From contig CAZYNM010000001.1 of assembly GCA_964648715.1 (NCBI GenBank), forward strand, positions 16,040 to 80,039: a stretch of 64,000 nt of DNA, read 5' to 3'. Shown here in pieces: positions 2-64,000 of this stretch (the first letter of the stretch is position 1; every line of letters starts with the position of its first letter). The notes beneath the pieces were generated by a model that saw nothing but the letters and a program-made list of their open reading frames with translations, had not been told where the DNA came from and made no database searches. The translations under genes and the position numbers were made by a program. This stretch comes from an uncultured Pseudomonadales bacterium. Lineage in GTDB: Bacteria; Patescibacteriota; Microgenomatia; UBA1400; PJMF01.

Positions 2-778
2 CATGAGTTTGCCTGGAACACCTTTGGTTTTGGGTTCCGTGATCTCATTGATGAACAAAAATCATTAGCGTTCTGGCAGACCATTGCACGATTCAAACGT
101 GCCGTAGTAGAAGAAGCAACTCAATATTCCAAAAAACTGGGCGTTAATATCCCTCACACAAATACCACCATCAAGCCATCTGGTACCATCTCCAAACTTT
201 TTGCTCTCACCGAAGGAGCGCACCTCCCAAGTATGCGCGAGTACATTCGCTGGGTGCAGTACCGTTCAGATGATCCCGCTGTAGAGAAGTACCGCAAAAA
301 GGGCTACCCCGTCAAAGAACTGAAAAGCTACCAAGGCTCCACTGTGGTTGGTTTTCCCACTCAACCGCTCATCTGTAGAATTGGTATGAATGGTGAACTC
401 GTGACCGCTGCCGAAGCAACGCCAGAAGAGCAGTACAAGTGGCTAATGCTTCTAGAAAAGTACTGGATTGTGGGTATTGATGAAGCAGGCAAGCCACTAG
501 AAGATACTGGTAACCAAGTGTCGTACACCCTCAAGTATGACCCACAAAAAGTGTCATACAAAGAATTCTCAGCAATGGTACGTCAGTATCAAGGTCTCAT
601 TAAGTGTTGTTCTGTCATGCCTCAACAAGATGCCACAGCCTATGAATACCAGCCTGAGCAGCCAGTCACCATCAGTGAGTTCATGAAGGTGCTCAATGAA
701 ATTGAGCAGGACGAGAACCTTCTTGAAGACATAGATTACGAACACTTAAAATGTGCTAGCGGAGCTTGTCCCATATAG
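2..778 (+). CDS. ribonucleotide reductase large subunit, C-terminal part (5' partial; reading frame is open from window start)
   Basis: Frame 2 is open from nt 2; translation HEFAWNTFGFGFRDL...TNTTIKPSGTISKLF...; C-terminal CASGACPI resembles the redox-active CxSGAC tail of RNR large subunits; stop TAG 776-778. Confidence 0.55.
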   Translation, partial: HEFAWNTFGFGFRDLIDEQKSLAFWQTIARFKRAVVEEATQYSKKLGVNIPHTNTTIKPSGTISKLFALTEGAHLPSMREYIRWVQYRSDDPAVEKYRKKGYPVKELKSYQGSTVVGFPTQPLICRIGMNGELVTAAEATPEEQYKWLMLLEKYWIVGIDEAGKPLEDTGNQVSYTLKYDPQKVSYKEFSAMVRQYQGLIKCCSVMPQQDATAYEYQPEQPVTISEFMKVLNEIEQDENLLEDIDYEHLKCASGACPI

Positions 779-847
779 TGGGTACTTGCGGGAAATGGCG
801 CTTGCTCTGTATACTGGTATGAAAGATGGTGTGTTTAGGGCTCTATC

Positions 848-876
848 TTGAGAAAAATGTAGAAATATCGTATAAT
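848..876 (+). promoter_or_regulatory. sigma70-like promoter TTGAGA-17nt-TATAAT upstream of giant ORF
   Basis: TTGAGA at 848-853, 17-nt spacer, TATAAT at 871-876, about 34 nt before ATG 910. Confidence 0.5.
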
Positions 877-909
877 TTGATACCAGTATCTCGTTAAAGA
901 GAGCACATT

Positions 910-3900
910 ATGACAGAAGCACATAATAACTCCGCAGCAGAAGTTGCACAACAATTAGCTCAAGAACTTTTAAAGCAAACTGGTGCGGCAGATGAACCAC
1001 AAGCTGATCCAATCGGAAAGAGCAAAGAAGTTAAAGATGCAGGTGCGCAACAAAAAGCTGAATTAATTCAGAATCGCATCCAGACTGGTGAGTTAATGAA
1101 TGATCTCCCTGGTACCGTAGCTCTTGCGCGTGAACCAGCTGTAGCGGCTCTTCTGAAAAAGATGCTGACGCCAGCCGACCATCAGACTATTACTGATTTG
1201 ATCCAACAGTTTGATGGAGCCCCAGCTGAAGAGCATAAAGATCCAACTGTGACATCAGCTCCCAGACCAGAGAAAACGAAACAGGTTGCTCCACCTTCTT
1301 CTCATGATGCAGCACCTCAGAATCATGAGAATGAACACGCTGATGATCAAGAAGAGGAAGAAGCAGAAGTTGAACGCATTGCCAGTCCTTTTGATCGTTT
1401 GGGACGTCGTGGCATGGTGCGCAGAATAAATGAAGCTATTGCTGCAGACGCTGCACACCAGGTTTTTGTTGATAGAAACATTGATGTTACGCGCACTCAC
1501 GCATACCAAATGAACGAAGCGTGGGACAATCGCGATAATCCTGAGATAATGGCGCAAATACTCACTGATGCTCTTGCAAACGCTCTCGACCTGCGTATTC
1601 CTCGTAATGTACGTGGTGCAGAGCGGGCAACACAAGCTGCTGAGAACTGGACGATTGCCACTCGCCTTGCTGAGCGCATTGTCAATATTGAAGCAAATCC
1701 AGAACCAAGACGCGGTGTGGCCGCACTCACTGAAGGGATTCGCAATAGAGTAGCTCGTGGTTTCCGTGGGGCACTAGATGCTCTTGGTAGATTCTATAAT
1801 CGCGCAGTAGAAGCAAATGCCGGCACTGTCCGCGGTGTAGACATTGTTCCAGTGGTCTCTCGTGATGTCCAGCGCGCTCAAGCCACTGCTCCAGAACGTG
1901 AGTTTACCCCAGAAGATAGAACACGATTTGAAGCATTTGTTGAACACATTAGAGATGAAAAAGTAAAGAAAAATGTTGCTACACAGTTACGCAAGCTTCG
2001 TACTGAAAATGCTATCCCTGTGGTTGATGAAAGTGATGCAGCTGCAGATGCTGTAGAGGCTCTCACTCCAGAACAAGTATCGCAACGCCAGCATGTACTC
2101 GACCTTATCTCAGATGCCTTTGCCTATCTCAAAGATCTAAACTTTGATCCCGATCTTGAAGATGAAGATATGGCTCTGGAAAATCCTGACGATATTCTTG
2201 CCCTGCTTGAAATTCTCAAGGAACTCAACATTACTATAGATAGTGCAAAAAAGAAAAAAAATGTACGAACTGTTGATGAGTTTATGCCTGTTGCACCTGT
2301 TGTGCCTGAGGACGATGCAGAAGAGCCCGCAGATGATGGCGCTCCAGAATCAGAAGATGATGCACCACAGAAGGAAAAAAAGCTTTCATTGTGGCAACGT
2401 ATGCAGTTTTGGAAGCGTGGTGAACGTGATGCGGACGCGTTTATGGATGGAGATAACGCAGCAGACTTGAATTATCTTCAAGCAGAGCTTAGTGAGGGAT
2501 TGAAGAAACTTCATCCAAAAGATAGAAACTATAAAACTAAGCGTGGTGCATACGTTCGTGCCATCGGTCTTTTAGCACAAGTACAAGCAGGTGAACTTGT
2601 TGAGGGCGATGATATCCCTCGTAATCACAAAGCTATTAATCAACTCAGAAAAGAGCTGAGCGTACTGGGTATAGCAAGTAGAGAAGCAGAAGCAGATGCT
2701 ATCACTACAGACACAGAAGCTCAAAAGAATGCTGAGAAAGCAGTTGATGGCTCAGATCTACCACCAAGCAAGAAACGATGGCTTAAAGATAAGCTCAAGG
2801 CTGGCTGGAATTGTGTAAAAAGTCCCGCATTCCTTCTGGGTGCAGCGACTGGTGTGGCCACGGATATTCTTCTCTATGTAACCGGTGCAGATCATACCTG
2901 GAAGAGGGGCGTATATGTTGCGGCTACAGCATTCCTTGCTGATGGTGCTATGAGTACTTATGTCAGAGCTAAGTTGGTTAGTGCCTCCAGTATGGGAGGA
3001 CCAGTGGGTCTGGGTGCCTATGGTTTATTCTGGGTGCTTGATAAAGGAGTTCAAATTGTAGGCCCGGGAAATGTAAGTAAGTTTGGCGCAGGGTTCTTTG
3101 GTGGCTATGAATTAGCGCATATTGGTCATCATGTCTACGATCAGTATTCAGCCACTGCTGCCACTCACACCGTTACAGCAGGTGAAGGTCAGACAGGCAC
3201 TGGTGCTGATTCAAAACACTCATCGCTTACAGGCGTTGAACCAGTTAAACCAGATCACGGTGAAAAACTCACCGATGATACCCCACCAAAGGCTAACGCT
3301 TCTGTTGATACTCATACAGTCGCTCCTGCAGCAGATGCTCCAAAGGTAGACACAACTGCCAACGTGCAGACTTCTGGTGAACAGCATCTGAGTGGTAATC
3401 CACTTACCGCACAACAAACAAACGTGCAAGCTTCTGGTGAACAGCACTTGAGTGGCAACCCTCTTGCACAAACACAAACGATAGTTGTAGATACTGAGAA
3501 ACTTCAAGATCAAGCACAGAATTGGGCACAGCAAATTGGTGCTTGGTGGAGAAATACTGTAACAAATGCTCAGCAAAATACTGGAGCACAACACCACAAT
3601 CAACAGGGAGAAACAAACCCAAATGCACAATTTATGGCTGATCTGAATCAAAAACGTGCAGGTGTAGATGTCACTGCAAATATTCACGATGGTAGTTCGG
3701 CAGCAGACTCTTCTGCTGACCACAGTAATCAGGGTTCAGACACGATGAATGACGCAGCTGGAAATACAGCTGGTGCCCACGGTGGTGTAGAAACAGGTGA
3801 TCTATCTCATGTTAAAGTCGTTACATTTGACAAACCATATATTTGGGAAGATGTAAAGGCAGTTACTGGAGACAACGGTGCAGTTACTGATGCTGTCAAA

Positions 3901-4878
3901 GATGCAACCGTCATGATGAATCACGCAGGCATGAGCACGCATGAATATCACCAAGGTGATCAAGTTGTTGTGATAGACTCCAACGTCCATACTGTCGCAG
4001 ATCTGCAAGCCTTGCACGCGAATCACCCAGAAGCACAGGGGTATGTCTTCTCTGACACTGCCATTGGGCGCATTGCTGAGTTTTACAAGCAAGCAGCACA
4101 AACACCTGCAGATCACAGAACGCCACTTCAAGAAGACGTGATGCGACATTTCACGGGAGGAACCTCTGGTGAAGAACTTGGTAAACATCCTGCTGCTGTT
4201 GAGGCACTCCTCAAGATTGCCAACGGAGAAACAGTGGATGGCAGTAAGCACATTATTGGTGGCGAGCATGTCGCCGACACCACTGTACATGCTACTACTG
4301 TATCTACTGCAGAAGCCCAACCAGTTGCGGAAGGTGGTGCAAAAGAACTTCTAGATGCTGCTATTGAACAGTACAAGCTGGATCTCAAGCACCCGCTAGC
4401 CGCTCAAGGCGTTATTGATCACTTCATGCATGAAGTCCCTAACAATACGGTTGATCATCCAGAACGGATTGCGCTCTTTGTTGATAACGTCTGGGGTAAA
4501 TGGGTGGATGCCTGTCACACGCTCAACCTGGACCCAATGAAAGCTAATCCAAAAATTGTGGACTATGTCGCCAATCCAGGATATCAAGGTAATGATCTGC
4601 TCACAGTCTCACCAGTACGTGCGGTTATGATTGAATATATCCAGCATGGAAATAGCATGAGTGAGCTTGGTATTACTCGTGGAGCAAATGAGCATACTTT
4701 TCTGAATCTAGATACGGTGCATGGTGTTCTGGCAAAAGTAGATGATAATCCGCTTATTGCCCAACTCATGGCAAACAACGGTGTAGATTCTGCGATTGGT
4801 CAACTCAATATAGAAGATATATTTGGCAATGACGCTGCCGACTATTATAAGAGAGTACAGAACAAGCAAGTACCGTAA
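910..4878 (+). CDS. giant hypothetical protein (1322 aa): acidic N-terminal region, central hydrophobic multi-helix segment, Thr/Gln-rich repeat region, unknown C-terminal domain
   Basis: Long uninterrupted ORF with coding-like composition; no signal peptide; hydrophobic block around aa 640-740 (AFLLGAATGVATDILLYV...GLGAYGLFWVL); in-frame 60-nt tandem repeat. Confidence 0.6.
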   Translation: MTEAHNNSAAEVAQQLAQELLKQTGAADEPQADPIGKSKEVKDAGAQQKAELIQNRIQTGELMNDLPGTVALAREPAVAALLKKMLTPADHQTITDLIQQFDGAPAEEHKDPTVTSAPRPEKTKQVAPPSSHDAAPQNHENEHADDQEEEEAEVERIASPFDRLGRRGMVRRINEAIAADAAHQVFVDRNIDVTRTHAYQMNEAWDNRDNPEIMAQILTDALANALDLRIPRNVRGAERATQAAENWTIATRLAERIVNIEANPEPRRGVAALTEGIRNRVARGFRGALDALGRFYNRAVEANAGTVRGVDIVPVVSRDVQRAQATAPEREFTPEDRTRFEAFVEHIRDEKVKKNVATQLRKLRTENAIPVVDESDAAADAVEALTPEQVSQRQHVLDLISDAFAYLKDLNFDPDLEDEDMALENPDDILALLEILKELNITIDSAKKKKNVRTVDEFMPVAPVVPEDDAEEPADDGAPESEDDAPQKEKKLSLWQRMQFWKRGERDADAFMDGDNAADLNYLQAELSEGLKKLHPKDRNYKTKRGAYVRAIGLLAQVQAGELVEGDDIPRNHKAINQLRKELSVLGIASREAEADAITTDTEAQKNAEKAVDGSDLPPSKKRWLKDKLKAGWNCVKSPAFLLGAATGVATDILLYVTGADHTWKRGVYVAATAFLADGAMSTYVRAKLVSASSMGGPVGLGAYGLFWVLDKGVQIVGPGNVSKFGAGFFGGYELAHIGHHVYDQYSATAATHTVTAGEGQTGTGADSKHSSLTGVEPVKPDHGEKLTDDTPPKANASVDTHTVAPAADAPKVDTTANVQTSGEQHLSGNPLTAQQTNVQASGEQHLSGNPLAQTQTIVVDTEKLQDQAQNWAQQIGAWWRNTVTNAQQNTGAQHHNQQGETNPNAQFMADLNQKRAGVDVTANIHDGSSAADSSADHSNQGSDTMNDAAGNTAGAHGGVETGDLSHVKVVTFDKPYIWEDVKAVTGDNGAVTDAVKDATVMMNHAGMSTHEYHQGDQVVVIDSNVHTVADLQALHANHPEAQGYVFSDTAIGRIAEFYKQAAQTPADHRTPLQEDVMRHFTGGTSGEELGKHPAAVEALLKIANGETVDGSKHIIGGEHVADTTVHATTVSTAEAQPVAEGGAKELLDAAIEQYKLDLKHPLAAQGVIDHFMHEVPNNTVDHPERIALFVDNVWGKWVDACHTLNLDPMKANPKIVDYVANPGYQGNDLLTVSPVRAVMIEYIQHGNSMSELGITRGANEHTFLNLDTVHGVLAKVDDNPLIAQLMANNGVDSAIGQLNIEDIFGNDAADYYKRVQNKQVP
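3361..3480 (+). repeat. 2 x 60-nt imperfect tandem direct repeat inside giant ORF (encodes NVQ(T/A)SGEQHLSGNPL...)
   Basis: aacgtgcagacttctggtgaacagcatctgagtggtaatcc... repeated as aacgtgcaagcttctggtgaacagcacttgagtggcaaccc... Confidence 0.8.
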
Positions 4879-4906
4879 TAGCTAATACAAAAAGGTTCAA
4901 ACAACT

Positions 4907-5221
4907 ATGTCAGAATCTACTGCCCCAGCTTTTTCAGCGCTGACCAGACTGAAAGACGCACTAACAAAAGCCAATATGAGTGAAGATAATGTCTCATTCA
5001 TACTTGGTCGGCTAACCCGCGTTATCACTGAAACTGTTGTTACTGAAGTTGCTCAGGCTCTAGGTGAAGAAGAGCTTAAACAAGTTGCAAATGTTGCTTC
5101 TGAAGAAGAAAAAATGCAGAAAATGGCGATTCTCTTTGAGCAAAAAACGGGGAAAAGTATTACCGTACTTAGAGAAGAAGTTACTGAAAAAATGGTCGCT
5201 GAATTTGAAGCACTTGAGTAG
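4907..5221 (+). CDS. small acidic hypothetical protein (104 aa)
   Basis: ORF 28 nt downstream of the giant gene, same strand; Glu-rich helical-looking sequence; no recognisable motif. Confidence 0.4.
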   Translation: MSESTAPAFSALTRLKDALTKANMSEDNVSFILGRLTRVITETVVTEVAQALGEEELKQVANVASEEEKMQKMAILFEQKTGKSITVLREEVTEKMVAEFEALE

Positions 5222-5241
5222 CTGTTTGGTGTGGGGTACCT

Positions 5242-7812
5242 ATGGCAGGTAATGAACAAGAACGGTCACAGGAAAACCATGCAAAATTACAACAGCTTGC
5301 ACGTCCAGTGCTTGAGTACTGTTTGGTTAGCGATGTCCGACTAACAAAAGAAAATGCACCCAAAGCGGTCTCAGCAACAAATGCACTTATTAAGGTAAGT
5401 ACCGAACTTTTTGCGCGTACTCCCGATACTGTCTCACTAAAAACTGCCGAGTACATAGCACAGGTACTGCAAGCAGTACAGTTCAAATTGTTAAGTGTTG
5501 GTCTTCGTACTGATGTTACTGATACAGGTATGGTGGGTTCTAGACCTGAGATTCGCCCTATTATACAGAAACGGAGTGCTGCTTCAGATCCACTTGCGGC
5601 AGCTTCAGAGGCTGGATTGAGAATTGTAGTGGAAAATTCTCATGCATCACCAGCACAGCTCAGAGATAACAGATCAGAACTTGTCGCTGTATACAACTAT
5701 TACGATCAAACGCGTTACCGTAGGCACGCTCAAAAACCTTATAGTGAACAAGAACTAACACAACAGGCTCGAGTGCTGACTGCAATGATTACTTCCCTCA
5801 TTAGTATGGGGAGGAACTTTTCACTTGAACTTAGAGGTGTAGACAACAAAGTGGCTAAACCTGCCCCAGAATTTTCCGGTGCAATGAGTTGGGAAAAAGC
5901 AAAAGGCGCTGTCGAGCTTATTCAATATGCTTCCTTGGAAGGAATGGAACCACTGCGTGATCACCTCAAGAAGTTTGGTGATCAGGAACAACATCAGTTT
6001 CACGATTTTTCTCTTGGCGCTCATGAAGCCGCTGTTATATATAACACGACTCATTATACTGAATTACCCATTTTTCCTGAGTGCCATGTCCAGTTTGATC
6101 CAAAGCTCCAGCGACTCGTTGAAGTAGGTGCGGCGCTCCATGATATTGGCAAAGTAGGTGCGGCAGAAGCAAATAGGCTTGGTTTAGATCCACAAAACAG
6201 AGGAAGAGAACCTAGACATACAGAAAATTCTGCACAGATTGTTGAAACACAGATCCTTAGTAAAATACCCTGGCTAACCGAAGAGGATAAGCAAAGAGTG
6301 TTGTTCCTGGTTAAGCACCATGACTGGCTTGGTGACTTGGGTTTTTATAAAAATGGAGACATCAGAAAGCAGCGGGAGGTCTTCAGAGAAAAGTCTTATG
6401 AGCAGCGCCTACATGAGCTGGTAAGCTCAGTGCGGGAGCCACAAGATCTAGCCTTGCTGTACCGACTAACCTTGTGTGATGTGGCAGGTATAAAAAAGGA
6501 CAATGCGCTGTTGACAAGAGAAGCGCAGCACTTGATTTATGCAGCCTACTGCGAAGCAGTTTCACTATGTCTGCAGAACCAAAGCCAAGAACAGAAACAA
6601 GCACCGATAAATCGCGAATTACAACAAGCTGAGAGTGCTTATTTTAGTCAACAAGCACGCATCGCACGGGGTGAGTCATTCATTGAAGCACAGGGAGGAA
6701 AGGCAGAGCATTCACTCTTTTCATATGCGTTGCCCACCCATCGCTGCTCCATAGATGCAGCAGTGGGTATCTTAAGTTCCGGTATGCTTGTATCGACACA
6801 AGACAGAGGAGTTAACTTCAAAGTTGCTGGCTTAGCTGCCGACTACGGTTGTATCACCTTTATAGGTAAAGGAAATGAAGTAGAGTTACTCCAACCTGAT
6901 GCTCCAAGCCCCTTTGATTACACCCAGAAATGGCAGAAGGGTCACAAACATGCATACAATGTCTTTGACTTAGCTGGTGTTGAAGGAACTTCAAAAGCAC
7001 GTGATTTTGGTGGACACGTAGCAGATATTCTCAAAGCAAAGCATGGTATTGATATCAACGACGAAACGCAGTACCCTCCCGCCAGTCGCACTAATCTTTT
7101 ACGTGAGCATTCTCAGTATTTAGTTGGTGATTGGGCAACCACGGCACAAGTTCCTGCGTGCGAAGGGCCTCAATTGAATGTAGGAATTCGAGCTTCAGAG
7201 AAAGCGTATTATCGCCCTCGTCTCGAATCTGCTGCTCAAAAAATGGGATGCACAGTGGACGACATTAAAGGTGCCGTGAGCACGGAATGTATTTGCGCCA
7301 TTATGGTTCCAGAGTTCTTGACCAAAGAGCCGGTTTATAACCGGTTGGCAGCACTAGCCAGTCAAAGAGGTGTAGATATTGTGATTTCACCGAGCGGTCA
7401 GACAGTGCTTGAGTACCTGGGCGACTCGCTCGCATATTTTTTAGATACAACCCGCTTTGTTCATCAGCCTATTCATAAGCTTGGGCCGTTGGTAGCGAAA
7501 GCCCTGGGAACGCAGTATGGAGTTAAGCTAACCTATCCAGGTGCTCAGACCTATGCAACTAGTACAGAAGGGCAAACATTCATGCAGTATGTGAAGCAGT
7601 ACCTCACGGAAAAGGGTCAATCAACTGATGCATTTGATGTTGTAAGACAGGGTATCGGGAAAAAACTGGTTCGTAGGAATATTTCCGGACAGTTCGCTAA
7701 TACCATGTGTCAAGAAGCGTATCAAGCTGAGCAAGCAACCTATTTTGGTTACAGCTCTAAGCGAGAACTAAAAGCTAAAAAAGCTGATATCAAAAGAAGG
7801 TATCAAGCTTAA
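5242..7812 (+). CDS. HD-domain (metal-dependent phosphohydrolase superfamily) protein, 856 aa, with large unknown N- and C-terminal regions
   Basis: Central motifs GAHEAAV...H, AALHDIGK (classic HD motif), VKHHDWLGDLG, LCDVAGI, consistent with the H..HD..H..D signature; stop overlaps next start (TAATG). Confidence 0.55.
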   Translation: MAGNEQERSQENHAKLQQLARPVLEYCLVSDVRLTKENAPKAVSATNALIKVSTELFARTPDTVSLKTAEYIAQVLQAVQFKLLSVGLRTDVTDTGMVGSRPEIRPIIQKRSAASDPLAAASEAGLRIVVENSHASPAQLRDNRSELVAVYNYYDQTRYRRHAQKPYSEQELTQQARVLTAMITSLISMGRNFSLELRGVDNKVAKPAPEFSGAMSWEKAKGAVELIQYASLEGMEPLRDHLKKFGDQEQHQFHDFSLGAHEAAVIYNTTHYTELPIFPECHVQFDPKLQRLVEVGAALHDIGKVGAAEANRLGLDPQNRGREPRHTENSAQIVETQILSKIPWLTEEDKQRVLFLVKHHDWLGDLGFYKNGDIRKQREVFREKSYEQRLHELVSSVREPQDLALLYRLTLCDVAGIKKDNALLTREAQHLIYAAYCEAVSLCLQNQSQEQKQAPINRELQQAESAYFSQQARIARGESFIEAQGGKAEHSLFSYALPTHRCSIDAAVGILSSGMLVSTQDRGVNFKVAGLAADYGCITFIGKGNEVELLQPDAPSPFDYTQKWQKGHKHAYNVFDLAGVEGTSKARDFGGHVADILKAKHGIDINDETQYPPASRTNLLREHSQYLVGDWATTAQVPACEGPQLNVGIRASEKAYYRPRLESAAQKMGCTVDDIKGAVSTECICAIMVPEFLTKEPVYNRLAALASQRGVDIVISPSGQTVLEYLGDSLAYFLDTTRFVHQPIHKLGPLVAKALGTQYGVKLTYPGAQTYATSTEGQTFMQYVKQYLTEKGQSTDAFDVVRQGIGKKLVRRNISGQFANTMCQEAYQAEQATYFGYSSKRELKAKKADIKRRYQA

Positions 7813-8708
7813 TGTCAAAAGAAAATTCTGGTAAGAGCGAGACGCCAGTTGGTAGAGACACACAGGAGCTGCAGCTTACTGAATGGATTACGCTTGAGAT
7901 TGTCGTTGGTGATATAACTTCAGTAGAAGCAGATGCTGTTGTATGTTCTTCAAATGGCTTCTTATTGATGGGTAGTGGCTCCGCAGGTGCATTACGGGAA
8001 GCAGGAGGGTATTACAATCCTACAGCAGACAGTGCAGCACGTATGCACGCACACATGGCACATCTACCCTTGCGGCTTGCGGAAAGCAGTACCGGCTTTG
8101 CTCGTCTGGAAAGACAGTCAGTTCATATTGCGACTGATAGAGAAGGTAGGCACTATTTCTCTGATGTTCAGACGGGCGCATTCGATCTCCTGGCACACAA
8201 TGGAATTGATGAGAAAACAGGGCTGTATAAGCCATACAAAGTGGGAGATGTTGTCCGTCAACCACTGCGCTTGGCAGCCGACAAAGATGGTACCCTACCT
8301 CGGGTTCTGTACCATGTTATTGCTATGACGTACAAACTGGCTATGGTGAAGCACAAAGACGTTGCTTATTATGTACTTGGTGATAAAGTCCCCGCCACGC
8401 CAAACTCCATTGATGCGTGTATGCATGCCTTACTTGCTCAGCTTCAAACTACTTCAGATTCGACTGTGGCAATACCCCTGATAGGTAGCAACAAAGGTGG
8501 ACTCACTGCCACCGATTCTGCACGAACAATTGTCCTAAGTTTACAAAGCTCATCAGCAGAGAAAAAGCTGCATGTTAAACTAGTACTTGATAAAGAGGTT
8601 GCTCAAAAGAACCCCGAATTGAGGACCATTCTGGAAAGAGCCGTCTCATCACGACCCAATCAGGTGGGCATGCTAATACAGGCCATAAAAGCTAAATTAG
8701 GTGGCTAA
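7812..8708 (+). CDS. macro-domain protein (ADP-ribose binding / processing), 298 aa with internal insertion
   Basis: N-terminal LEIVVGDITSVEADAVVCSSNGFLLMGSGSAGALREAGG matches the macro-domain GDIT...DA(I/V)VN..N..L..G.GV..AI..AGG signature; C-terminal VAIPLIGSNKGG resembles the macro phosphate-binding loop. Confidence 0.6.
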   Translation: MSKENSGKSETPVGRDTQELQLTEWITLEIVVGDITSVEADAVVCSSNGFLLMGSGSAGALREAGGYYNPTADSAARMHAHMAHLPLRLAESSTGFARLERQSVHIATDREGRHYFSDVQTGAFDLLAHNGIDEKTGLYKPYKVGDVVRQPLRLAADKDGTLPRVLYHVIAMTYKLAMVKHKDVAYYVLGDKVPATPNSIDACMHALLAQLQTTSDSTVAIPLIGSNKGGLTATDSARTIVLSLQSSSAEKKLHVKLVLDKEVAQKNPELRTILERAVSSRPNQVGMLIQAIKAKLGG

Positions 8709-8713
8709 AAGAT

Positions 8714-10051
8714 ATGGTAGAACAAAAGATATGGACACCATCTGAATTTGTTATAACGCGGGCAAATACATTGGTCACCCAGGTCCTTGAAGTCTTAAAA
8801 CCAACTTCAGATGCCAACAAAGATGAGCAGCTAAGCAGACTAGCAAACGATGCAAACACACTCTTAGAAAAGCTCGCACAGACATTTCGCGATGATCCTG
8901 AATTAATTGATCAAGCTACCATGCAACTACTCGCAAAGTCACTCATCACTGTGCAGATGTGCTTGCTGAGTGAGCACAGATCAACACGATTAGCTGTGCA
9001 TGCCAGTAAAGAACAAGAAAGTGTTGTGCCACAATCAGGTGATGTGATGGAACATGCTCGAGCGTGTCTCATGTTAATTCAAGATGGTGGACCTGAAGCC
9101 GTAGACAAACTTGTGGCTGCTTATAATCACTTTGTTGCTTTGCGTGATAGAGAACACAGTCTAGTCAAATACAGCACTGAGCAGATGCAGTTCTTTGCTA
9201 GAGTGCAGGTGGCGGTACAAACAAAGCTCATTTCAGAAGGTGTAGCTTGTCAATTGGTTGCAGAAAGCATGAAGCCGCTCATTAAATTTGGTGAGAACAC
9301 GCCTCCTGAAAACTTTGAACGCGCAGAGGCAGTTGGGCTCAAGCTAATACATAGAGATATCTCCTACTTACAATCTGTTTTGCGTTCGCATACCTCAGGA
9401 GGAAGTGCATGTGTTCCCCTTTCCTATGCGTACTTACGTATTTTGAGAGACTCGATAACAGATCGTTCCCAGCAAGAAAGTATGGTGCAAGGCATACTTG
9501 CTCAATGGAGAAAAAGGTTTAATGGTAACTGGGTAGGACCATCTGATTTCTTTGATACCACCAGCGACCAGGAAAGGAAATTGGACGCATTAAGCACACT
9601 GGACACCTCGCTCAGCAATACTGGTTTTGACGCTGTGGACTGTATTATCACCTATCTGGAAATGCCTGCGCATACTTTGTCTCGCGGCAAACTGGGGGTG
9701 ACACAGATAGAAATTAGTAGCAAACGAGGTGAACGACAAATGATTATCACCACAGCAGAGGGGCTCAAAGGGAGAGTCATTCACGTTGATGCTCAGAATC
9801 CTTATTGGCAGCAGCACAAAAATGCTATTCCTCGTGTGGGTACCTATGATTACACAGCGGGGCAACATGCTCTTCTAGTTGTTGATGGCAAAAAACTAGC
9901 AGACAACTCCTATGAAATATATGTTATTGATCCCATGACAGGGTGTGTGCTGGCTGTGAACCAATCTGAGTTGATTAGAGTGATACGAAAAACAAGTGAT
10001 GTTTCTCAGCAAAGATTCCAGATTCAGTTAGGAACGTGCACGATTAGCTAG
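8714..10051 (+). CDS. hypothetical protein (445 aa)
   Basis: Long ORF 6 nt after the macro gene, same strand; no recognisable motif. Confidence 0.45.
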   Translation: MVEQKIWTPSEFVITRANTLVTQVLEVLKPTSDANKDEQLSRLANDANTLLEKLAQTFRDDPELIDQATMQLLAKSLITVQMCLLSEHRSTRLAVHASKEQESVVPQSGDVMEHARACLMLIQDGGPEAVDKLVAAYNHFVALRDREHSLVKYSTEQMQFFARVQVAVQTKLISEGVACQLVAESMKPLIKFGENTPPENFERAEAVGLKLIHRDISYLQSVLRSHTSGGSACVPLSYAYLRILRDSITDRSQQESMVQGILAQWRKRFNGNWVGPSDFFDTTSDQERKLDALSTLDTSLSNTGFDAVDCIITYLEMPAHTLSRGKLGVTQIEISSKRGERQMIITTAEGLKGRVIHVDAQNPYWQQHKNAIPRVGTYDYTAGQHALLVVDGKKLADNSYEIYVIDPMTGCVLAVNQSELIRVIRKTSDVSQQRFQIQLGTCTIS

Positions 10052-10075
10052 TTAAGTAGTTTGACCAAAGCCAGC

Positions 10076-11140
10076 TCAAAGAGACGCTCTTGGTTGTCTA
10101 TCAGGGAATTTTGCCATATCCGTATATGCAATATGTTGTGGGTTGAGCGCAGCAGCAACCCCAATCATAGCCGCATTATCACCACAGAGTTTCTTGTGAA
10201 AGGGAACTTTTACTTTGGGTGAATAATTTTTTTGTGCTCGTGCAACTGTGCGGATCATTCTCCGTAGTTCCATGTTGGCGGCTACACCCCCACTTAGCCA
10301 AATTTCGCTATATCTCTCCTGAGATAAAAGATAGTTCAATTTATAACAAATATGTTTGAATACAGCATTTTGTATGCTCGCACTTAAGTCATATATCATC
10401 TGTTTACTCAGTGGGTGGTCATTCGTCATTTTTTCAATACGGTTTCGGGTATAAGTCTTGAGTCCAGAGAAACTGAGATCATACGATTTTATTTGTGTGA
10501 GGGGAAGCGGGAAGTCGTATGCATGAGCATTCCCGACTTTAGCAAATGCCTCGATGACAGGACCAGCAGGATAGCCAAGGTTGAGCATGCGACCAACTTT
10601 ATCTAGGCACTCACCTGCTGCATCATCCAGCGTCCGCCCAATCACTGTATATTCACCAAAGCCAGTTACCCGAACAAACTCTGAATGTCCGCCTGAAATG
10701 ATCACCCCTAGTACCGGAAACCGAGTGGGTACGGCGGTGGGAACTTTTGTGCGAGGATTTGGTTTAGCGAGCACTGAAAGCAAATGACCTTCCATGTGAT
10801 TGACTGGTATGAGTGGTAACGTGTGTTTGGTAGCAAATTGCTTGATGAAACGGATACCTACCTCCAACGCTGGAGCCAGTCCTGGCCCTATGGTTACTGC
10901 ACACGCTGCCAACTGACTGGAGGTCAATCCAGCCTTTTGCACTGCGCGCTGGACACATTTTTCAATGTTTTCAGCGTGGGCCAGTTTGGCGACTGTGGGG
11001 AACACCCCACCATATGGGCGGTGGAGTTCTACTTGTGAGGCAACCACGTTACTGAGAACCGTTATGCCCTGTACCACCGCACAACTTGTCTCATCACAAG
11101 AGGTGTCAACAGCAAGAATAGGCCCAGTATTAGGTTTCAT
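10076..11140 (-). CDS. tsaD: tRNA N6-adenosine threonylcarbamoyltransferase TsaD (Kae1/Gcp family)
   Basis: ILAVDTSCDETSCAVV..., HMEGHLLS, VIISGGHSEFV motifs; start chosen at MKPNTGPIL (internal Met of the longer ORF 11176). Confidence 0.8.
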   Translation of the reverse strand: MKPNTGPILAVDTSCDETSCAVVQGITVLSNVVASQVELHRPYGGVFPTVAKLAHAENIEKCVQRAVQKAGLTSSQLAACAVTIGPGLAPALEVGIRFIKQFATKHTLPLIPVNHMEGHLLSVLAKPNPRTKVPTAVPTRFPVLGVIISGGHSEFVRVTGFGEYTVIGRTLDDAAGECLDKVGRMLNLGYPAGPVIEAFAKVGNAHAYDFPLPLTQIKSYDLSFSGLKTYTRNRIEKMTNDHPLSKQMIYDLSASIQNAVFKHICYKLNYLLSQERYSEIWLSGGVAANMELRRMIRTVARAQKNYSPKVKVPFHKKLCGDNAAMIGVAAALNPQHIAYTDMAKFPDRQPRASL

Positions 11141-12224
11141 AAATTGTAATATTTCGTGTACTACCCATATCCTCAAACGTACAGATCAGTGAGGGTACCC
11201 CGGCTGTAATGAGGAGTGGAGTTGCAAACTGGGCAACTTGTGACCACCACTCAACAACAATTACGTGGTTTGGTTTCAACAGTTCAGCAAAGTCTAACTT
11301 TTCAAAAAGATCAACGGTATCTACTTTCCAAAAATCAGCGTGTATGAGCGTACCTGTGACTCCATGCCGAGTGAACGGATACTCTTCATAATACGTATAA
11401 GTGGGAGAACGCAACACATCAGGCAGTTGTAAAAATTGAGCTATCCCTTTTGAAAAGATTGTTTTACCCGCACCCAGTGGACCATTCAAGCCAAACACTA
11501 GACCAGTTTTTTTTATTTGCTCCCAATTCTTGAGTATAAGTTTTCCTGCCAAATCTTTGGTTTCTGCTTCTGAGCTAGTAGTCAGCGTGTAGCCACTTTT
11601 TTGAGTCGGTTGTTGAAGCAGTACACCCTGACGGAGCGTAACTGGTGTAGCAAGTGTGGTGTCAATAACTGTAGAGGGTGGACGTTGGGGAAGCGTACCT
11701 GCATCAAGACAACAATCAATAAGTGACTTTTGTGTCTCGGAGAGTGCACCAAAAATATCTGCAAGCGAGTAGGGGCGTTTCTCGCCCGAAGCATTTGCGG
11801 AAGTAGCTGTAATAGGTTTCCCATAGGCACGAAGTAGCTTTAACATAAACGGGTAGTCCGGTATCCTCACTCCGATGGTGCCAAATTCTGATGCCACACC
11901 CGGTGCCAATGTGCCTTTACGTACGTACGATACTACCGTGAGCGGTCCAGGCAAAAATTGCGCGTAGAGAGTTCTCGCTTGATCATTGACTACTGCATAC
12001 TGTTCAGCTACCAGTGCATCTGGAACTGCGATGGAGAGTGGTTTTCCTTCTCTGCGTGCTTTGTATCGCAGTAACTTGTCTACGGCGTGCGGTAGCGTAG
12101 CATCAACGCCAGCGCCATAGGTTGTTTCGGTAGGAAAGATGACGAGTCCTCCTTGAGCAAGTATGGTGCACGCCTGAGCAATGATGTCAGTTTCTTGGGT
12201 TTCTGCCAGTTTGAGTATTTGCAT
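11130..12224 (-). CDS. fused threonylcarbamoyl-AMP synthase (TsaC/YrdC domain) and TsaE P-loop ATPase
   Basis: N-terminal LVIFPTETTYGAGVDA...ITATSANASG (YrdC/Sua5 domain); C-terminal GLNGPLGAGKTIFSKGIAQFL...SPTYTYYEEY (TsaE/YjeE Walker A and SPT motif); overlaps tsaD start by ~11 nt. Confidence 0.7.
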   Translation of the reverse strand: MQILKLAETQETDIIAQACTILAQGGLVIFPTETTYGAGVDATLPHAVDKLLRYKARREGKPLSIAVPDALVAEQYAVVNDQARTLYAQFLPGPLTVVSYVRKGTLAPGVASEFGTIGVRIPDYPFMLKLLRAYGKPITATSANASGEKRPYSLADIFGALSETQKSLIDCCLDAGTLPQRPPSTVIDTTLATPVTLRQGVLLQQPTQKSGYTLTTSSEAETKDLAGKLILKNWEQIKKTGLVFGLNGPLGAGKTIFSKGIAQFLQLPDVLRSPTYTYYEEYPFTRHGVTGTLIHADFWKVDTVDLFEKLDFAELLKPNHVIVVEWWSQVAQFATPLLITAGVPSLICTFEDMGSTRNITIYET

Positions 12225-12264
12225 ACAGGCTGTATTATAGCGTGGTATATAATAAAGACACGCT

Positions 12265-12600
12265 ATGTATCAAGCTAGCCCTCAATTTGTCTCTACCCAG
12301 ATACCACAAGCAAGCAAGTTCAATCTATATCTCAAGACACAAGAAATGAAAGAACTGGCCCGAGTTCTTCAGTACGTGAGCGCTCTCCCTAAGAGACAGA
12401 GAAATGCTTGGGCCAAGGAGCACGCGACTTTGATTCAGCAGGCAGTAGATTTTTTTGTACAGGAATCAAATGCGACACTGGCAGAGCTTTCGCTTGATGC
12501 AGAAGTGATTGAACTTTCTAAAGAGTTAGTAACATCTTTACGAGATGCTGTTGATATGGCGCAAGGCATCTTATTTACTGCACGTACACATAAAAGTTGA
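12265..12600 (+). CDS. hypothetical protein (111 aa)
   Basis: ORF immediately upstream of yidC; no motif recognised. Confidence 0.35.
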   Translation: MYQASPQFVSTQIPQASKFNLYLKTQEMKELARVLQYVSALPKRQRNAWAKEHATLIQQAVDFFVQESNATLAELSLDAEVIELSKELVTSLRDAVDMAQGILFTARTHKS

Positions 12601-18143: not shown

Positions 18144-18161
18144 GAGGCAAAGCAAGTAGAG

Positions 18162-18235
18162 TACCAGGGGAGAGATTCGAACTCTCGACCTTGGGTTTAT
18201 GAATCCCATGCTCTAACCAACTGAGCTACCCTGGC
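18162..18235 (-). tRNA. tRNA with CAT anticodon (elongator Met or Ile2-lysidine type)
   Basis: Reverse complement GCCAGGGTAGCTCAGTTGGTTAGAGCATGGGATTCATAAACCCAAGGTCGAGAGTTCGAATCTCTCCCCTGGTA: acceptor GCCAGGG/CCCTGGT (G1-U72), D arm GCTC...GAGC, anticodon loop TTCATAA, T arm GAGAG-TTCGAAT-CTCTC; CCA not encoded. Confidence 0.8.
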
Positions 18236-18335
18236 ACGATACTGACAGGCAAATTATACCAGATATTCGTACCCTTGGTATTATGAGAGTTCTAGCGTAT
18301 AATCAGGAACGCTTGCAGCGAAAAAAGCAAGTTCG

Positions 18336-18404
18336 CGCGGGGTAGTGTACGGTGCACGTGAGGCTCATAATCTCACAGGCCGGGTTCGACTCCCGGCCCC
18401 GCAA
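18336..18404 (+). tRNA. initiator tRNA-fMet (CAT) with C1:A72 mismatch
   Basis: CGCGGGGTAGTGTACGGTGCACGTGAGGCTCATAATCTCACAGGCCGGGTTCGACTCCCGGCCCCGCAA: acceptor CGCGGGG/CCCCGCA as in E. coli tRNA-fMet, anticodon loop CTCATAA, T arm CCGGG-TTCGACT-CCCGG; short D arm; CCA not encoded. Confidence 0.75.
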
Positions 18405-18416
18405 CATGAGTGTGTT

Positions 18417-61630: not shown

Positions 61631-64000
61631 ATGTCAAATTCTTCGCAATATGGACGAGTTTTTGATGAATTCACAAATCTATACCCTGTATCTAAAACAC
61701 TCCGTTTTGAACTTGTCCCTGATCCAGCCTCCCTTGAACACATGAAGACTAGATTTGGATATGATCCTGAAATTCAAGCTTTCTTGTGTGACAAAGAAAT
61801 TGAAGATGCATATCAAAGACTCAAACCAGTTTTAGATAAAATTCACGAGCAGTTTATTACTGAAAGTCTAACTTCCAATGACGTAAAGAAAATTGATTTT
61901 TCTGAATATTTTAAGACTTTTTTTGAAATAAAAGAGAGTAAAAAAGGTGATCTTAAAAAGGTAGAAAGTCAGCTCCGCAAACAAATTGGAGATGCTTTTG
62001 TTAGCACATCCATTGCTTGGAAGCCTAAAGCAGGTAATAACTCAAAAGGCAAACCAATTTTGAGTGACAATGGCTACAAAATTTTGACTGAAAAGGGAAT
62101 ACTCAAGTATATTGAAATTCATGCTGATGATTTTGTTGACATCCTTGATAAGGATACATTACTAAAGATATTGGAACAATTTAGTGACTTTTTCACATAT
62201 TTCTCAGGATTTAGCCAAAATAGAGAAAATTACTATACCACTAAAGACGAAAAGGAAACTGCGGTAGCTACGCGTATAGTTTCAGTGAATCTTCCTAAAT
62301 TTTGCGACAATATTGTAGCTTTTCAAGAAAGAACACAAGAATACCTCGAAATATCTAATTACTTAGAGAATATTGGTGTTAACTTAGTTGATCTACAAAA
62401 AAACAAATTAGAACCAGTTGCAAAGGAATTATTTGTAATAGAACATTTTTCGAATTGCTTATCTCAACAGGAAATAGATATTTATAACGAAAAAATAGGG
62501 AAAGTAAATTTACTTGTCAATTTGTACAATCAAAATAAAAAGAGTCAAAAGAATGAATTTAAGAAATTACCGCAGTTTAAAACACTGTATAAACAGATTG
62601 GATGTGGAAAGAGAAAAGTAACATTTGAGCAAATTACAGATTATTCTGAGAGAGAAGCTCAAGAAAAACGTGCTCAGAAGAAGCAAGCATTATCTGTTGA
62701 GGCTGTTTTGAACACAGTTGTAAATGCAGGAAATAAATATTTTAAAATACCATCTACAGATGGGATGGTGCATTCTGTCCTAGATTTTGTGAAGTATCTT
62801 AGAGAAGCAAATTCATATGAAGGAATTTATATAACAAAGACTGCACTTAATTCCATATCAGGAAAGTATTTTAATCAATGGGATGTACTACAAAAAGCTT
62901 TGGTTAAATCAGGTGTATTTGCTACAGACAAAAAATCAGAGGATGGATTTAGAATACCTGCAGCTATTGAACTTTCTGCTTTATTTGAAGTAATCAATAC
63001 AGTTGAGGATTGGAAAGTATCATTCTTTAAGCCTGCAGTATTGAAAGATTCAGTGAAAGCAAAGTTGATTGAATCAAGTGCATCTGCAGCAAGTGCATTG
63101 CTAGCATGTATTTTTTCAGATCTAGAGCAAGCAGTCTCAAAGTTTATTGAAAATCAAAGTGCCGTTCTAGAATCAGCTGACTTCAAAAGTGTTGAAAGAA
63201 AAGAGGTGATTAAGAATTGGCTAGATCAAATGCTTGTCATCAGCCAAATCGTTAAGTACTTCTCAGTTAAAGAAAAAGATGTAAAGGGTAAGTCACTTGA
63301 TCCATTAGTCGCAGAATTTATGAAAAACTTTTTTGAAGGTGATGCGCACTGGTCATCTTGGTATGACTTAATTCGCAATTTCATGACTAGAAAAGTGCAA
63401 GATAGAGCTAATGACAAGGCAAATAGAATGAAGTTGAACTTCGGAAATAGCACACTTGCCGATGGCTGGGATGTTAATAAAGAACCAAGTAATTATTGTG
63501 TTTTACTAAAGAATCCAAACGGAAAATACCATCTAGCTATAATTTCAAAATCAAATGGTAAACAAACGAATGCTAATACATTTGTAAAAAATAGCAAAAA
63601 CCCACTATACATTGTGAGAGATGTAAGCAATGTCTGGCAAAAAATGGAGTATAAACTTTTACCTGGCCCAAATAAAATGTTGCCTAAATGCTTATTACCA
63701 AAATCAAACATTAAAAAATATGGAGCGTCTAACGAAGTAATTGATATATATAATTCAGGTGCATTCAAAAAGAATGAGTCTAATTTTTCAATTAGTAAAC
63801 TTCATATCCTAATTGATTTCTATAAACAGGCAATAAGAAAATATACTGATTGGCAATGTTTTAACTTCAACTTTTTACACACAGAAAAATATACTGATAT
63901 TAGTGAGTTTTATCATGATGTTGAAAAGGCTGGTTACATAGTTAATTTTGTATCAATAAGTGGTGAGCACCTAAATAAGTTAGTTAATGAAGGAAAAATC
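61631..64000 (+). CDS. cas12a: CRISPR-associated endonuclease Cas12a (Cpf1), N-terminal ~790 aa; 3' partial, runs off the window
   Basis: RBS AAAGAGGAGG then ATG 61631; ORF open and in frame to nt 64000; translation contains Cas12a hallmarks: YPVSKTLRFELVP (N-terminal), FSGFSQNRENYYT, RIVSVNLPKFCDNI, MKLNFGNSTLADGWDVNKE (WED), YKLLPGPNKMLPK (PAM-interacting), FYHDVEKAGY...FVSISGEHLNKLVNEGKI; absent from the supplied ORF track because it has no in-window stop. Confidence 0.85.
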   Translation, partial: MSNSSQYGRVFDEFTNLYPVSKTLRFELVPDPASLEHMKTRFGYDPEIQAFLCDKEIEDAYQRLKPVLDKIHEQFITESLTSNDVKKIDFSEYFKTFFEIKESKKGDLKKVESQLRKQIGDAFVSTSIAWKPKAGNNSKGKPILSDNGYKILTEKGILKYIEIHADDFVDILDKDTLLKILEQFSDFFTYFSGFSQNRENYYTTKDEKETAVATRIVSVNLPKFCDNIVAFQERTQEYLEISNYLENIGVNLVDLQKNKLEPVAKELFVIEHFSNCLSQQEIDIYNEKIGKVNLLVNLYNQNKKSQKNEFKKLPQFKTLYKQIGCGKRKVTFEQITDYSEREAQEKRAQKKQALSVEAVLNTVVNAGNKYFKIPSTDGMVHSVLDFVKYLREANSYEGIYITKTALNSISGKYFNQWDVLQKALVKSGVFATDKKSEDGFRIPAAIELSALFEVINTVEDWKVSFFKPAVLKDSVKAKLIESSASAASALLACIFSDLEQAVSKFIENQSAVLESADFKSVERKEVIKNWLDQMLVISQIVKYFSVKEKDVKGKSLDPLVAEFMKNFFEGDAHWSSWYDLIRNFMTRKVQDRANDKANRMKLNFGNSTLADGWDVNKEPSNYCVLLKNPNGKYHLAIISKSNGKQTNANTFVKNSKNPLYIVRDVSNVWQKMEYKLLPGPNKMLPKCLLPKSNIKKYGASNEVIDIYNSGAFKKNESNFSISKLHILIDFYKQAIRKYTDWQCFNFNFLHTEKYTDISEFYHDVEKAGYIVNFVSISGEHLNKLVNEGKI

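Follow-up and report, generated by a model that had tools for sequence, protein, structure and literature searches.

What could five tightly packed plus-strand genes, lying between a ribonucleotide reductase (RNR) gene and the genes for the tRNA modification N6-threonylcarbamoyladenosine (t6A), do together in a bacterium of the candidate phyla radiation (CPR)? The genes are part of a 64,000-nucleotide stretch of contig CAZYNM010000001.1 (GCA_964648715.1), which is called the window here. The list of open reading frames (ORFs) and their translations indicate that all five are real, and they encode a giant protein, a small acidic protein, an HD-domain protein, a macrodomain (macro) protein and a protein of 445 amino acids. 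We compared this locus with its relatives: two gene pairs are conserved, one N-terminal module is shared by otherwise different proteins, the genes that accompany the giant vary between genomes, and the domain architectures recur in other giant proteins. The reading that we favor, tentatively and at somewhat less than an even chance, is a lineage-restricted cargo locus of Woesebacteria-like CPR, in which the HD protein, with its C-terminal PTHRC domain, would be a toxin-like effector, the macro protein its antidote, and the giant and small proteins their platform. The five genes are as follows.

910–4878, plus strand: giant protein, 1322 aa, isoelectric point (pI) 5.0
4907–5221, plus strand: small acidic protein, 104 aa, pI 4.7
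5242–7812, plus strand: HD protein, 856 aa, consisting of an N-module, an HD domain and PTHRC
7812–8708, plus strand: macro protein, 298 aa
8714–10051, plus strand: 445-aa protein, an N-module followed by a C-terminal Cys-His-Asp domain

The intergenic distances are, in order, 28, 20, −1 and 5 nt, and at the HD/macro junction, GCTTAATGTCA, one base is common to the TAA stop and the ATG start. The operon-like packing and the overlap of the HD and macro genes were therefore read correctly in the original prediction, which had been made on the window alone.

Gene content of the related loci

The gene orders of the compared loci are listed here, with L numbers for the loci and P numbers for proteins.

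Window and L001: giant, small protein, HD-PTHRC protein with N-module, macro protein, 445-aa protein with N-module
L002/L023: RNR, an extra 284-aa gene, giant, small protein, HD-PTHRC protein, N-terminus of the macro protein at the contig end
L021: RNR, giant, small protein, a 240-aa gene, HD gene truncated by the contig end
L006: giant and small protein on the opposite strand, directly beside the HD-PTHRC protein, then the macro protein
L005: RNR, giant, small protein, 445-like protein, TsaD
L007–L009 and L017–L018: giant, small protein, P0025-type protein, TsaD
L004: P0025-type protein, 445-like protein, TsaD

The giant and small genes are adjacent in seven distinct loci (the window, L001, L002/L023, L005, L006, L007–L009/L017–L018 and L021), homologues of the giant having been identified beside a small-protein gene in L001, L002, L005, L006, L007 and L021. 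The small protein is predicted to be helical, and a hidden Markov model (HMM) built from six homologues locates its gene directly 3′ of the giant in every locus; the L021 protein, which was outside the training set, is recovered with E = 2.5e-19. In L006 the pair is inverted relative to the HD and macro genes yet still adjacent to them. The giant and the small protein are the constant, invariable part of the locus, which does not agree with the effector/immunity pair that they had been suspected to form.

The second conserved pair is that of the HD and macro genes. A macro gene directly follows the HD-PTHRC gene in all four loci with visible downstream DNA, either with an overlap of 1–4 nt, as in the window and L001, or after a gap of 8–10 nt, and both genes are jointly absent from L005, L007 and L004. 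This conserved adjacency supports the functional link between HD and macro that had been proposed from the window. The cargo varies, with one to three genes per locus, between genomes whose flanking housekeeping proteins are 67–93% identical. All five genes occur together only in the window and in its 84% sister locus, L001; elsewhere we find the sub-blocks giant plus small and HD plus macro, and the idea of one fixed five-gene module is abandoned. The extra genes of L002 (284 aa) and L021 (240 aa) were tried as relatives of the N-module or of the 445-aa protein, and no similarity was found.

These gene orders bear on the simplest alternative, namely that the five genes are functionally unrelated and packed only through the compactness of CPR genomes. 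The confinement of the full set to the window and its 84% sister would fit this explanation, as would the high gene density throughout the window. However, the giant–small and HD–macro adjacencies recur at 31–37% protein identity and after rearrangement, the third and fifth genes carry a common domain that is found nowhere else, and the HD stop and macro start codons overlap. This explanation was already disfavored, and we consider it very improbable.

The families involved are extremely rare. Among 5.8 billion clustered proteins, only three belong to the HD-PTHRC family, and an exhaustive search of 1.84 billion representatives returned 25 matches at E ≤ 1e-3, five of which belong to the family (the representative of the query included); the others are mainly generic HD domains. 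A metagenome scan recovered only the organism of L002 again, as L022 and L023, and a scan of viral contigs found nothing. Judged by sequence, HD and macro belong to known superfamilies, and PTHRC, the N-module, the giant and the small protein each represent a new family that is limited to a few CPR lineages.

As a separate observation, L002 (9021–9393) and the end of L023 are two independent assemblies of the same organism that are both broken at this locus. One break lies inside the HD gene; the other follows a 54-aa N-terminal macro fragment and continues into unrelated reverse-strand sequence. They suggest strain heterogeneity or rearrangement at the HD–macro junction.

The N-module and its attached domains

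Two features of the HD and 445-aa proteins had been overlooked in the window: both begin with the same N-module, and the HD protein has a separate, new domain as its C-terminal half. The HD protein is divided as follows.

5275–5937, plus strand: N-module, aa ~12–232, a helical domain of ~210 aa
5944–6591, plus strand: HD metal-dependent phosphohydrolase domain, aa ~235–450, assigned from family motif conservation and profile matches
6709–7809, plus strand: PTHRC, aa ~490–856, an α/β plus helical domain of ~370 aa, assigned from alignments and an AlphaFold2 model

The N-module is common to three cargo types, which are the HD protein, the 445-aa family and the P0025-type proteins. BLAST connects the module of the HD protein with 445-aa homologues (E = 2e-8 and 7.5e-6) and with a 743-aa gene of L004 (L004_743; E = 5e-19). 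HMMER finds it in P0025 (811 aa) with E = 1.6e-12 over profile positions 36–213, and the N-module HMM matches aa ~7–216 of the 445-aa protein with E = 1e-85. It has no Pfam match, and no further copy was found elsewhere in the window or in the fetched loci. The C-termini attached to it are unrelated: HD plus PTHRC in the first type, the Cys-His-Asp domain in the second and a third domain in the P0025 type, for which PDB, Pfam and NCBIfam gave no identity.

In the C-terminal half of the 445-aa protein, C233, H385 and D406 are invariant in four homologues (alignment A7), and the motifs GSACVPLSYAYL … HALLVxD … IDPMTG form a papain/C39-like pattern. A papain/C39 peptidase finds no support in PDB or Pfam, the best match being Herpes_teg_N with E = 0.11, and NCBIfam, PADLOC and PHROG gave no match to the 445-aa protein either. 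The homologues of this protein in L001, L004 and L005 always lie immediately before TsaD.

The HD domain

The motifs H..H, LHDIGK, HHD and D are conserved family-wide, and the ligands H251, H254, H261, H300-D301, H326, H360 and D413 are invariant across the six sequences of alignment A8; further HD alignments took in five family members and two generic HD relatives. The HHD motif of the window protein is H359-H360-D361, of which H359 and D361 vary in P0023 (YHE) and H360 is invariant. Pfam HD (PF01966) matches the window protein with E = 0.003 and 18.2 bits, under the gathering score of 22, and the full-length family member P0023 passes this score with 28.4. At the family level, the HD assignment of the original prediction holds.

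The nearest solved relative, found with a domain-only profile against PDB, is the HD domain of the Aquifex class II tRNA nucleotidyltransferase (3wfo–3wfs; E = 4e-6), and HD-GYP phosphodiesterases come next among the matches (E = 0.1–0.4). The HD domain of the E. coli CCA enzyme reportedly acts as a 2′,3′-cyclic phosphodiesterase and as a phosphatase. A Cas3-like nuclease was considered and rejected: TIGR01596 reaches 24.5 bits against a cut-off of 43.45, the PADLOC Cas3 match (E = 2e-7) covers the HD core only, no Cas3 structure occurs among the PDB matches, and neither a helicase domain nor adjacent cas genes are present. Since the domain-only profile finds the CCA-enzyme HD domain and no Cas3, the sub-threshold Cas3-HD matches are generic.

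HD domains of the window's subtype also lie at the C-termini of P0027 and P0028 (~900–1100 aa), behind helical repeats and a conserved region (FLSCHVTNAFGGGAALVEG … SYNELLVRRWTVGGLFY). This region was tried as a relative of ADP-ribosyltransferases (ARTs), Tpt1 or PTHRC, and hhalign found nothing.

The PTHRC domain

The invariant residues of PTHRC are T499, H500, R501, R522, G523, F526, Y535, G536, D588, Q708, Y725, S729, R811, N820, E830, Y834 and Y837. By sequence, the domain matches nothing in Pfam, NCBIfam, PADLOC, PHROG or PDB. Its motifs, THR[CT]S…GIL.SG.L.S…RG.NF, had prompted the suspicion of an ART, Tpt1 or DarT before the fold search. An AlphaFold2 model from a seven-sequence alignment has a pLDDT of 73 and a pTM of 0.74, and Foldseek returns no match to it in PDB at E ≤ 1e-3. 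Among the weak matches, yeast Tpt1 is at rank 2 with a probability of 0.92, over 41 columns only, and four Thermus DarT entries lie within the top 26 (TM-score 0.36–0.40, E = 0.8–2). Sequence searches in Pfam, NCBIfam, PADLOC and PDB do not support an ART, Tpt1 or DarT identity, and neither does hhalign, which assigns a probability of 0.2% to PTHRC against an alignment of E. coli KptA and three solved homologues. DarT (DUF4433) itself gave no match in PADLOC, Pfam or NCBIfam, including scans with seven members at E ≤ 10. Because only weak Foldseek matches and an hhalign probability of this size are at hand, the ART idea stays a conjecture; an NAD-binding core of the ART/Tpt1 type (NAD, nicotinamide adenine dinucleotide) would explain the macro partner. 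PTHRC is most safely treated as a new domain whose fold class is unsettled.

PTHRC also occurs outside the HD protein, in UGA-recoded CPR lineages. A 2349-aa protein of L012, which has strong membrane segments, carries it at its very C-terminus, and a giant in L013–L015, at least 1187 aa long, likewise ends in this domain. An ORF of 117–122 aa follows the PTHRC giant in both L012 and L013; the two ORFs have no detectable homology to each other or to macro. In L010/L011, PTHRC is fused to HD in the reverse order. As the fusion of HD and PTHRC recurs in both orders, we argue that the two domains work together.

Two side observations concern these distant loci. First, a single in-frame TAA interrupts PTHRC in L013 at ~3560–3590 (…WTHRTTLDAL*SILQLGYMNGGSRGVQF…); the gene calls are split alike in L013, L014 and L015, and the junction sequence was read in L013 only. 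It could be a pseudogenized toxin tip, a read-through site or a further codon reassignment in this UGA=Gly lineage. Second, L010–L015 have a GC content of 20–32% and match database proteins only with UGA as a sense codon. UGA is Trp in the database calls, and reading it as Gly (code 25) restores Gly-rich motifs, so many W residues in the database versions of P0033, P0036 and P0040 are mistranslated Gly.

The HD and PTHRC results bring in a second alternative, in which the HD-PTHRC and macro proteins are a metabolic or RNA-end-processing pair: PTHRC would be Tpt1-like and use NAD+, HD would open a cyclic phosphate or 2′,3′-cyclic ends, and macro would remove a 1″-phosphate or ADP-ribose. This scheme is modeled on the yeast Tpt1/Cpd1/Poa1 pathway. 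The closeness of the HD domain to that of the CCA enzyme and the local Foldseek match to Tpt1 speak for it, as do the match of the macro N-terminal block to a 'phosphatase' PHROG, a constraint on the HD gene like that on TsaD and the presence of nucleotide and tRNA genes nearby (RNR and t6A). The hhalign comparison with Tpt1 speaks against it; moreover, HD and macro are dispensable in the close relatives L005 and L007, the family is extremely rare (five members in the 1.84 billion representatives), and both the common N-module and the PTHRC domains at giant tips are left unexplained. We regard this alternative as unlikely.

The macro protein

The macro protein has an insert of ~70 aa after the first Gly-rich loop, and N48 and the loops GSGSAG and IGSNKGG are kept. 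The family profile (alignment A6) matches the solved macrodomain 2dx6 (TTHA0132) with E = 5.4e-11, both ADP-ribose loops being collinear, which substantiates at the family level the macro call made from the window. At E ≤ 1 this profile has 49 matches in PDB, comprising 2dx6 and 48 macrodomain-related chains, several of which are proteins designed on the 2dx6 scaffold; MacroD-type (2e-6), MACROD2, AF1521 and PARP9/14 macrodomains are also matched. Pfam macro (PF01661) is not passed by the window protein (18.8 bits against a gathering score of 22), and NCBIfam macro pieces reach E = 4e-7, far under the equivalog cut-offs, because the ~70-aa insert splits the match. The Asp of the MacroD type is replaced by Ala, the same as in 2dx6. 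With both loops and N48 retained, the protein is a candidate ADP-ribose-binding or ADP-ribose-processing enzyme. Its homologues lie 3′ of HD in L001, in L006 (E = 4e-15; NCBIfam macro models E = 7e-7) and, as an N-terminal fragment, in L002.

Membership in known defense families was not found. The DarG model NF048014 gives 18.7 bits against a cut-off of 250 and the PADLOC DarG model gives E = 0.0044; ThsA_Macro gives 18.5 bits against 25, and the block contains no TIR gene, so that neither DarG nor the ThsA of Thoeris is indicated. In a PHROG search, the only links to phage families were through the generic macro and HD cores (phrog_335 and phrog_6931).

These matches belong to a third alternative, in which the HD-PTHRC and macro proteins form an intracellular toxin–antitoxin or anti-phage pair by the logic of DarT-DarG or Thoeris. 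The toxin would stay inside the cell and be released on infection, and the adjacency to the giant and small genes would be inherited synteny. The tight coupling of HD and macro is conserved, and the two are present or absent together. DarG and the macro domain of ThsA are among the weak macro matches, DarT is among the weak Foldseek matches of PTHRC, and another defense gene, Cas12a, lies in this genome (61631–64000). Against this, PADLOC finds no DarT, the five proteins match no defense component above threshold, and the DarG score is the 18.7 bits given above. The N-module, furthermore, is common to cargo that is found only after the giant and small genes, PTHRC elsewhere caps giant membrane proteins at their C-terminus, and the adjacency to the giant and small genes survives the inversion in L006. 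We think this alternative is improbable as well.

The giant and its small partner

The giant has an acidic low-complexity N-terminal half and no signal peptide, as judged by sequence and hydropathy. Its main features are as follows.

2767–3144, plus strand: aa 620–745, a basic patch (KKRWLKDKLK) and then a hydrophobic cluster rich in Gly and Ala
3361–3479, plus strand: tandem repeat of 60 nt × 2 in the low-complexity linker, 80% match
3787–4875, plus strand: C-terminal domain, aa ~960–1322, the most conserved part among the giants

The hydropathy profile has one clear hydrophobic segment (aa 638–660) and two or three weaker Gly/Ala-rich ones, and the cluster at aa 620–745 is presumed to be a membrane anchor of one to four helices; the 'membrane' label of the giant has hydropathy as its sole basis. 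This cluster is kept in four of the five aligned full-length giants (window, L001, L005 and L002) and is not evident in L006. Between the window and L002, the region of aa 620–745 is the single significant BLAST patch. The linker repeat duplicates a 20-aa peptide with the sequence NVQxSGEQHLSGNPL in it, which suggests that the linker varies in length. The C-terminus is 49% identical to that of the L007 giant and 28% to that of L021. It has no Pfam match at E ≤ 10, and profile searches thus assign no family to it. The giant as a whole has no match in Pfam, NCBIfam, PADLOC, PHROG or PDB sequences, and the small protein belongs to no known family in the same collections.

Selection on the five genes

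We computed dN/dS, the ratio of nonsynonymous to synonymous substitution rates, between the window and L001. All five genes are under purifying selection, with dN/dS of 0.06–0.17, and these ratios are rough because dS is near saturation (0.8–1.7; 1.3–1.7 in four of the five genes). The values are 0.12 for the giant, 0.07 for the small protein and 0.06 for HD, whose constraint equals that of TsaD. The giant, macro and 445-aa genes evolve at two to three times the rate of the flanking TsaD and TsaC-E genes.

Genomic setting

The only sizeable intergenic gap of the locus, 131 nt (779–909), lies upstream of the giant and contains the predicted promoter.

848–876, plus strand: sigma-70-like promoter, TTGAGA-17-TATAAT, 11 of 12 consensus positions; its function is predicted

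This is the top-scoring site within 600–12400, in keeping with the near-consensus promoter that had been noticed, and promoter-like sites overall are not more frequent than in shuffled sequence. The 5′ neighbor is the C-terminus of a class II RNR (TIGR02505, E = 5.9e-7), which shares 82% identity with the terminal part of an RNR in L002 that is nearly full-length. On the 3′ side, TsaD and then a TsaC/Sua5-TsaE fusion are convergent with the block at a distance of 24 nt; the names are the Pfam labels of the syntenic genes in L001. The placement between RNR and t6A genes is thereby supported. Beyond the fusion lie YidC, a Band-7 protein, GroES and GroEL. This GroEL shares a 90% cluster with one from a 'Candidatus Woesebacteria bacterium', which places the genome in CPR/Patescibacteria. 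The five block genes have a GC content of 0.41–0.47, which is host-like. We rejected a recent horizontal acquisition of the block because of this host-like GC and because there are no mobility genes.

Several further observations concern the neighborhood. The TsaC/Sua5 (YrdC)-TsaE fusion (11130–12224, minus strand, 364 aa) overlaps the start of TsaD and is kept in all related loci. Between it and YidC, a 111-aa ORF with no family assignment (12265–12600, plus strand) is present in every related contig, with 92% identity to L001 and 78% to L007; its dN/dS of 0.04 indicates strong purifying selection. Two divergent tRNA-Met(CAT) genes lie ~100 nt apart at 18161–18405 (ARAGORN, Rfam), one of them presumably of the initiator or tRNA-Ile2 precursor type. 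In L005 (GCA_964394125.1), the RNR at 2122–4326 is two ORFs of 620 and 110 aa, the result of a frameshift, a stop or an assembly error, and it is a single gene in the relatives of the window. Lastly, the 5′ part of a Cas12a/Cpf1 gene occupies 61631–64000 on the plus strand as an ORF of at least 790 aa that runs past the end of the window (Pfam REC1 E = 3e-36, Cpf1 PI-like 6e-31, Cpf1 REC2 1e-6). Its GC is 0.32 against ~0.44 elsewhere in the window, and this low GC suggests that Cas12a was acquired horizontally.

A cargo locus as the favored reading

In the cargo-locus reading, the giant, probably membrane-anchored, and its small partner would form a constant platform, and the N-module enzymes would be interchangeable cargo that the N-module tethers to this platform at the membrane. 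HD-PTHRC would act on nucleic acids or nucleotides as a toxin-like effector, and macro, translationally coupled to it, would be the cognate antidote in the producer cell, where it would reverse a modification of the ADP-ribose type or destroy an ADP-ribose-derived product. After a presumed export, the cargo would act on a neighboring or host cell. The evidence counted for this reading is the constancy of the giant and small genes, the pairing of HD and macro, the variation of the cargo, the common N-module, the PTHRC tips of giants and the kept ADP-ribose loops, together with the faster evolution of the giant, macro and 445-aa genes than of their flanks. A conflict or host-interaction module, as first supposed, is made more likely by the cargo variation and the PTHRC domains at giant tips; the region does not resemble a recently acquired accessory island, given the host-like GC, the conserved RNR–TsaD slot and the lack of mobility genes.

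Several results weigh on the other side. Searches of the five proteins and their relatives in Pfam, NCBIfam, PADLOC and PHROG found neither a secretion-system gene nor a signal peptide nor any recognized domain for trafficking, and hydropathy predicts no membrane segment in the cargo proteins. No gene resembling an immunity gene lies 3′ of the 445-aa and P0025-type cargos. The fold of PTHRC is unsettled and the ART/Tpt1 idea fails in sequence-profile comparison, with the hhalign probability of 0.2% against Tpt1, and the HD domain resembles RNA-end or nucleotide phosphohydrolases, not known toxin nucleases. The N-module HMM does not detect the module in the distant HD proteins of L002, L006 and L021. 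The N-modules are mutually 25–37% identical, as old paralogues are, and this low identity gives no indication that cassettes were exchanged recently by recombination. Finally, the sample is small, and because most loci come from one clade and share the same RNR–TsaD slot, part of the synteny is inherited, not independently maintained.

A bolder version of the cargo reading, which we hold to be doubtful, is a contact-dependent delivery system of the clade's own. The giant and small proteins would present N-module-tagged enzymes, or enzymes fused to the giant as in L012, to a host or competitor; PTHRC would be an NAD-using, ADP-ribosylating toxin fold joined to a CCA-type HD phosphodiesterase and neutralized by the insert-bearing macrodomain.

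Little is known of how the ultra-small, host-dependent CPR/Patescibacteria attack other cells, feed on them or compete with them, and few of their giant proteins have been assigned a role. The locus is a testable unit in this respect, with PTHRC and its invariant residues, a candidate antidote in macro and a candidate adaptor in the N-module. If the toxin/antidote reading is true, both the toxin fold and the carrier architecture would be new to the known conflict systems, and a function would be suggested for CPR giants. If it is wrong, HD-PTHRC and macro would still be a new nucleotide- or RNA-end-processing enzyme set.

Comparison with known systems

We compared the locus with four known systems. 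Like DarT-DarG, it has an enzyme gene followed by a macrodomain gene, the pair is gained and lost together, and PTHRC has weak structural matches to DarT. However, there is no DarT sequence or profile similarity, the macro protein is under the DarG cut-off and carries the ~70-aa insert, an HD domain and an N-module are also part of the upstream protein, and the pair lies in a giant-protein locus. The pathway of Tpt1/KptA, cyclic phosphodiesterase and Appr-1″-p phosphatase (macro) could, in principle, be matched by the combination of an NAD-using domain, an HD domain of the CCA kind and a macrodomain. It differs in that PTHRC is not detectably Tpt1, and the window's pair is dispensable in relatives and linked to giants.

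The polymorphic toxin loci, namely contact-dependent growth inhibition (CDI), Rhs and LXG (Zhang et al. 2012, PMC3482391), resemble the present one in having a conserved large or N-terminal part with variable enzymatic C-termini and a candidate immunity gene directly 3′; the PTHRC domains of L012 and L013, each the tip of a giant followed by a small ORF, come under the same pattern. Both immunity proteins that enzymatically remove ADP-ribose and papain-like Cys-His-Asp toxin domains are documented in these systems (PMC3482391). Unlike them, the window locus has no recognized secretion or trafficking domain and no type V, VI or VII or PVC apparatus, and its candidate toxin is a separate protein, not the tip of the giant. 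Its N-modules are old paralogues, two of the three cargo types lack an immunity-like neighbor, and every domain except HD and macro is new.

Lastly, giant membrane or surface proteins with a presumed role in host contact are described from episymbiotic CPR lineages (PMC8080830). Like the giants of Vampirococcus lugosii (PMC8080830), the window giant exceeds 1000 aa, evolves fast, is predicted to be membrane-associated and has no known domains. Adhesion-type repeats such as WD40 and PKD were not detected in it. In contrast to those giants, it comes with a small partner protein of its own, and a series of enzyme genes lies behind it.

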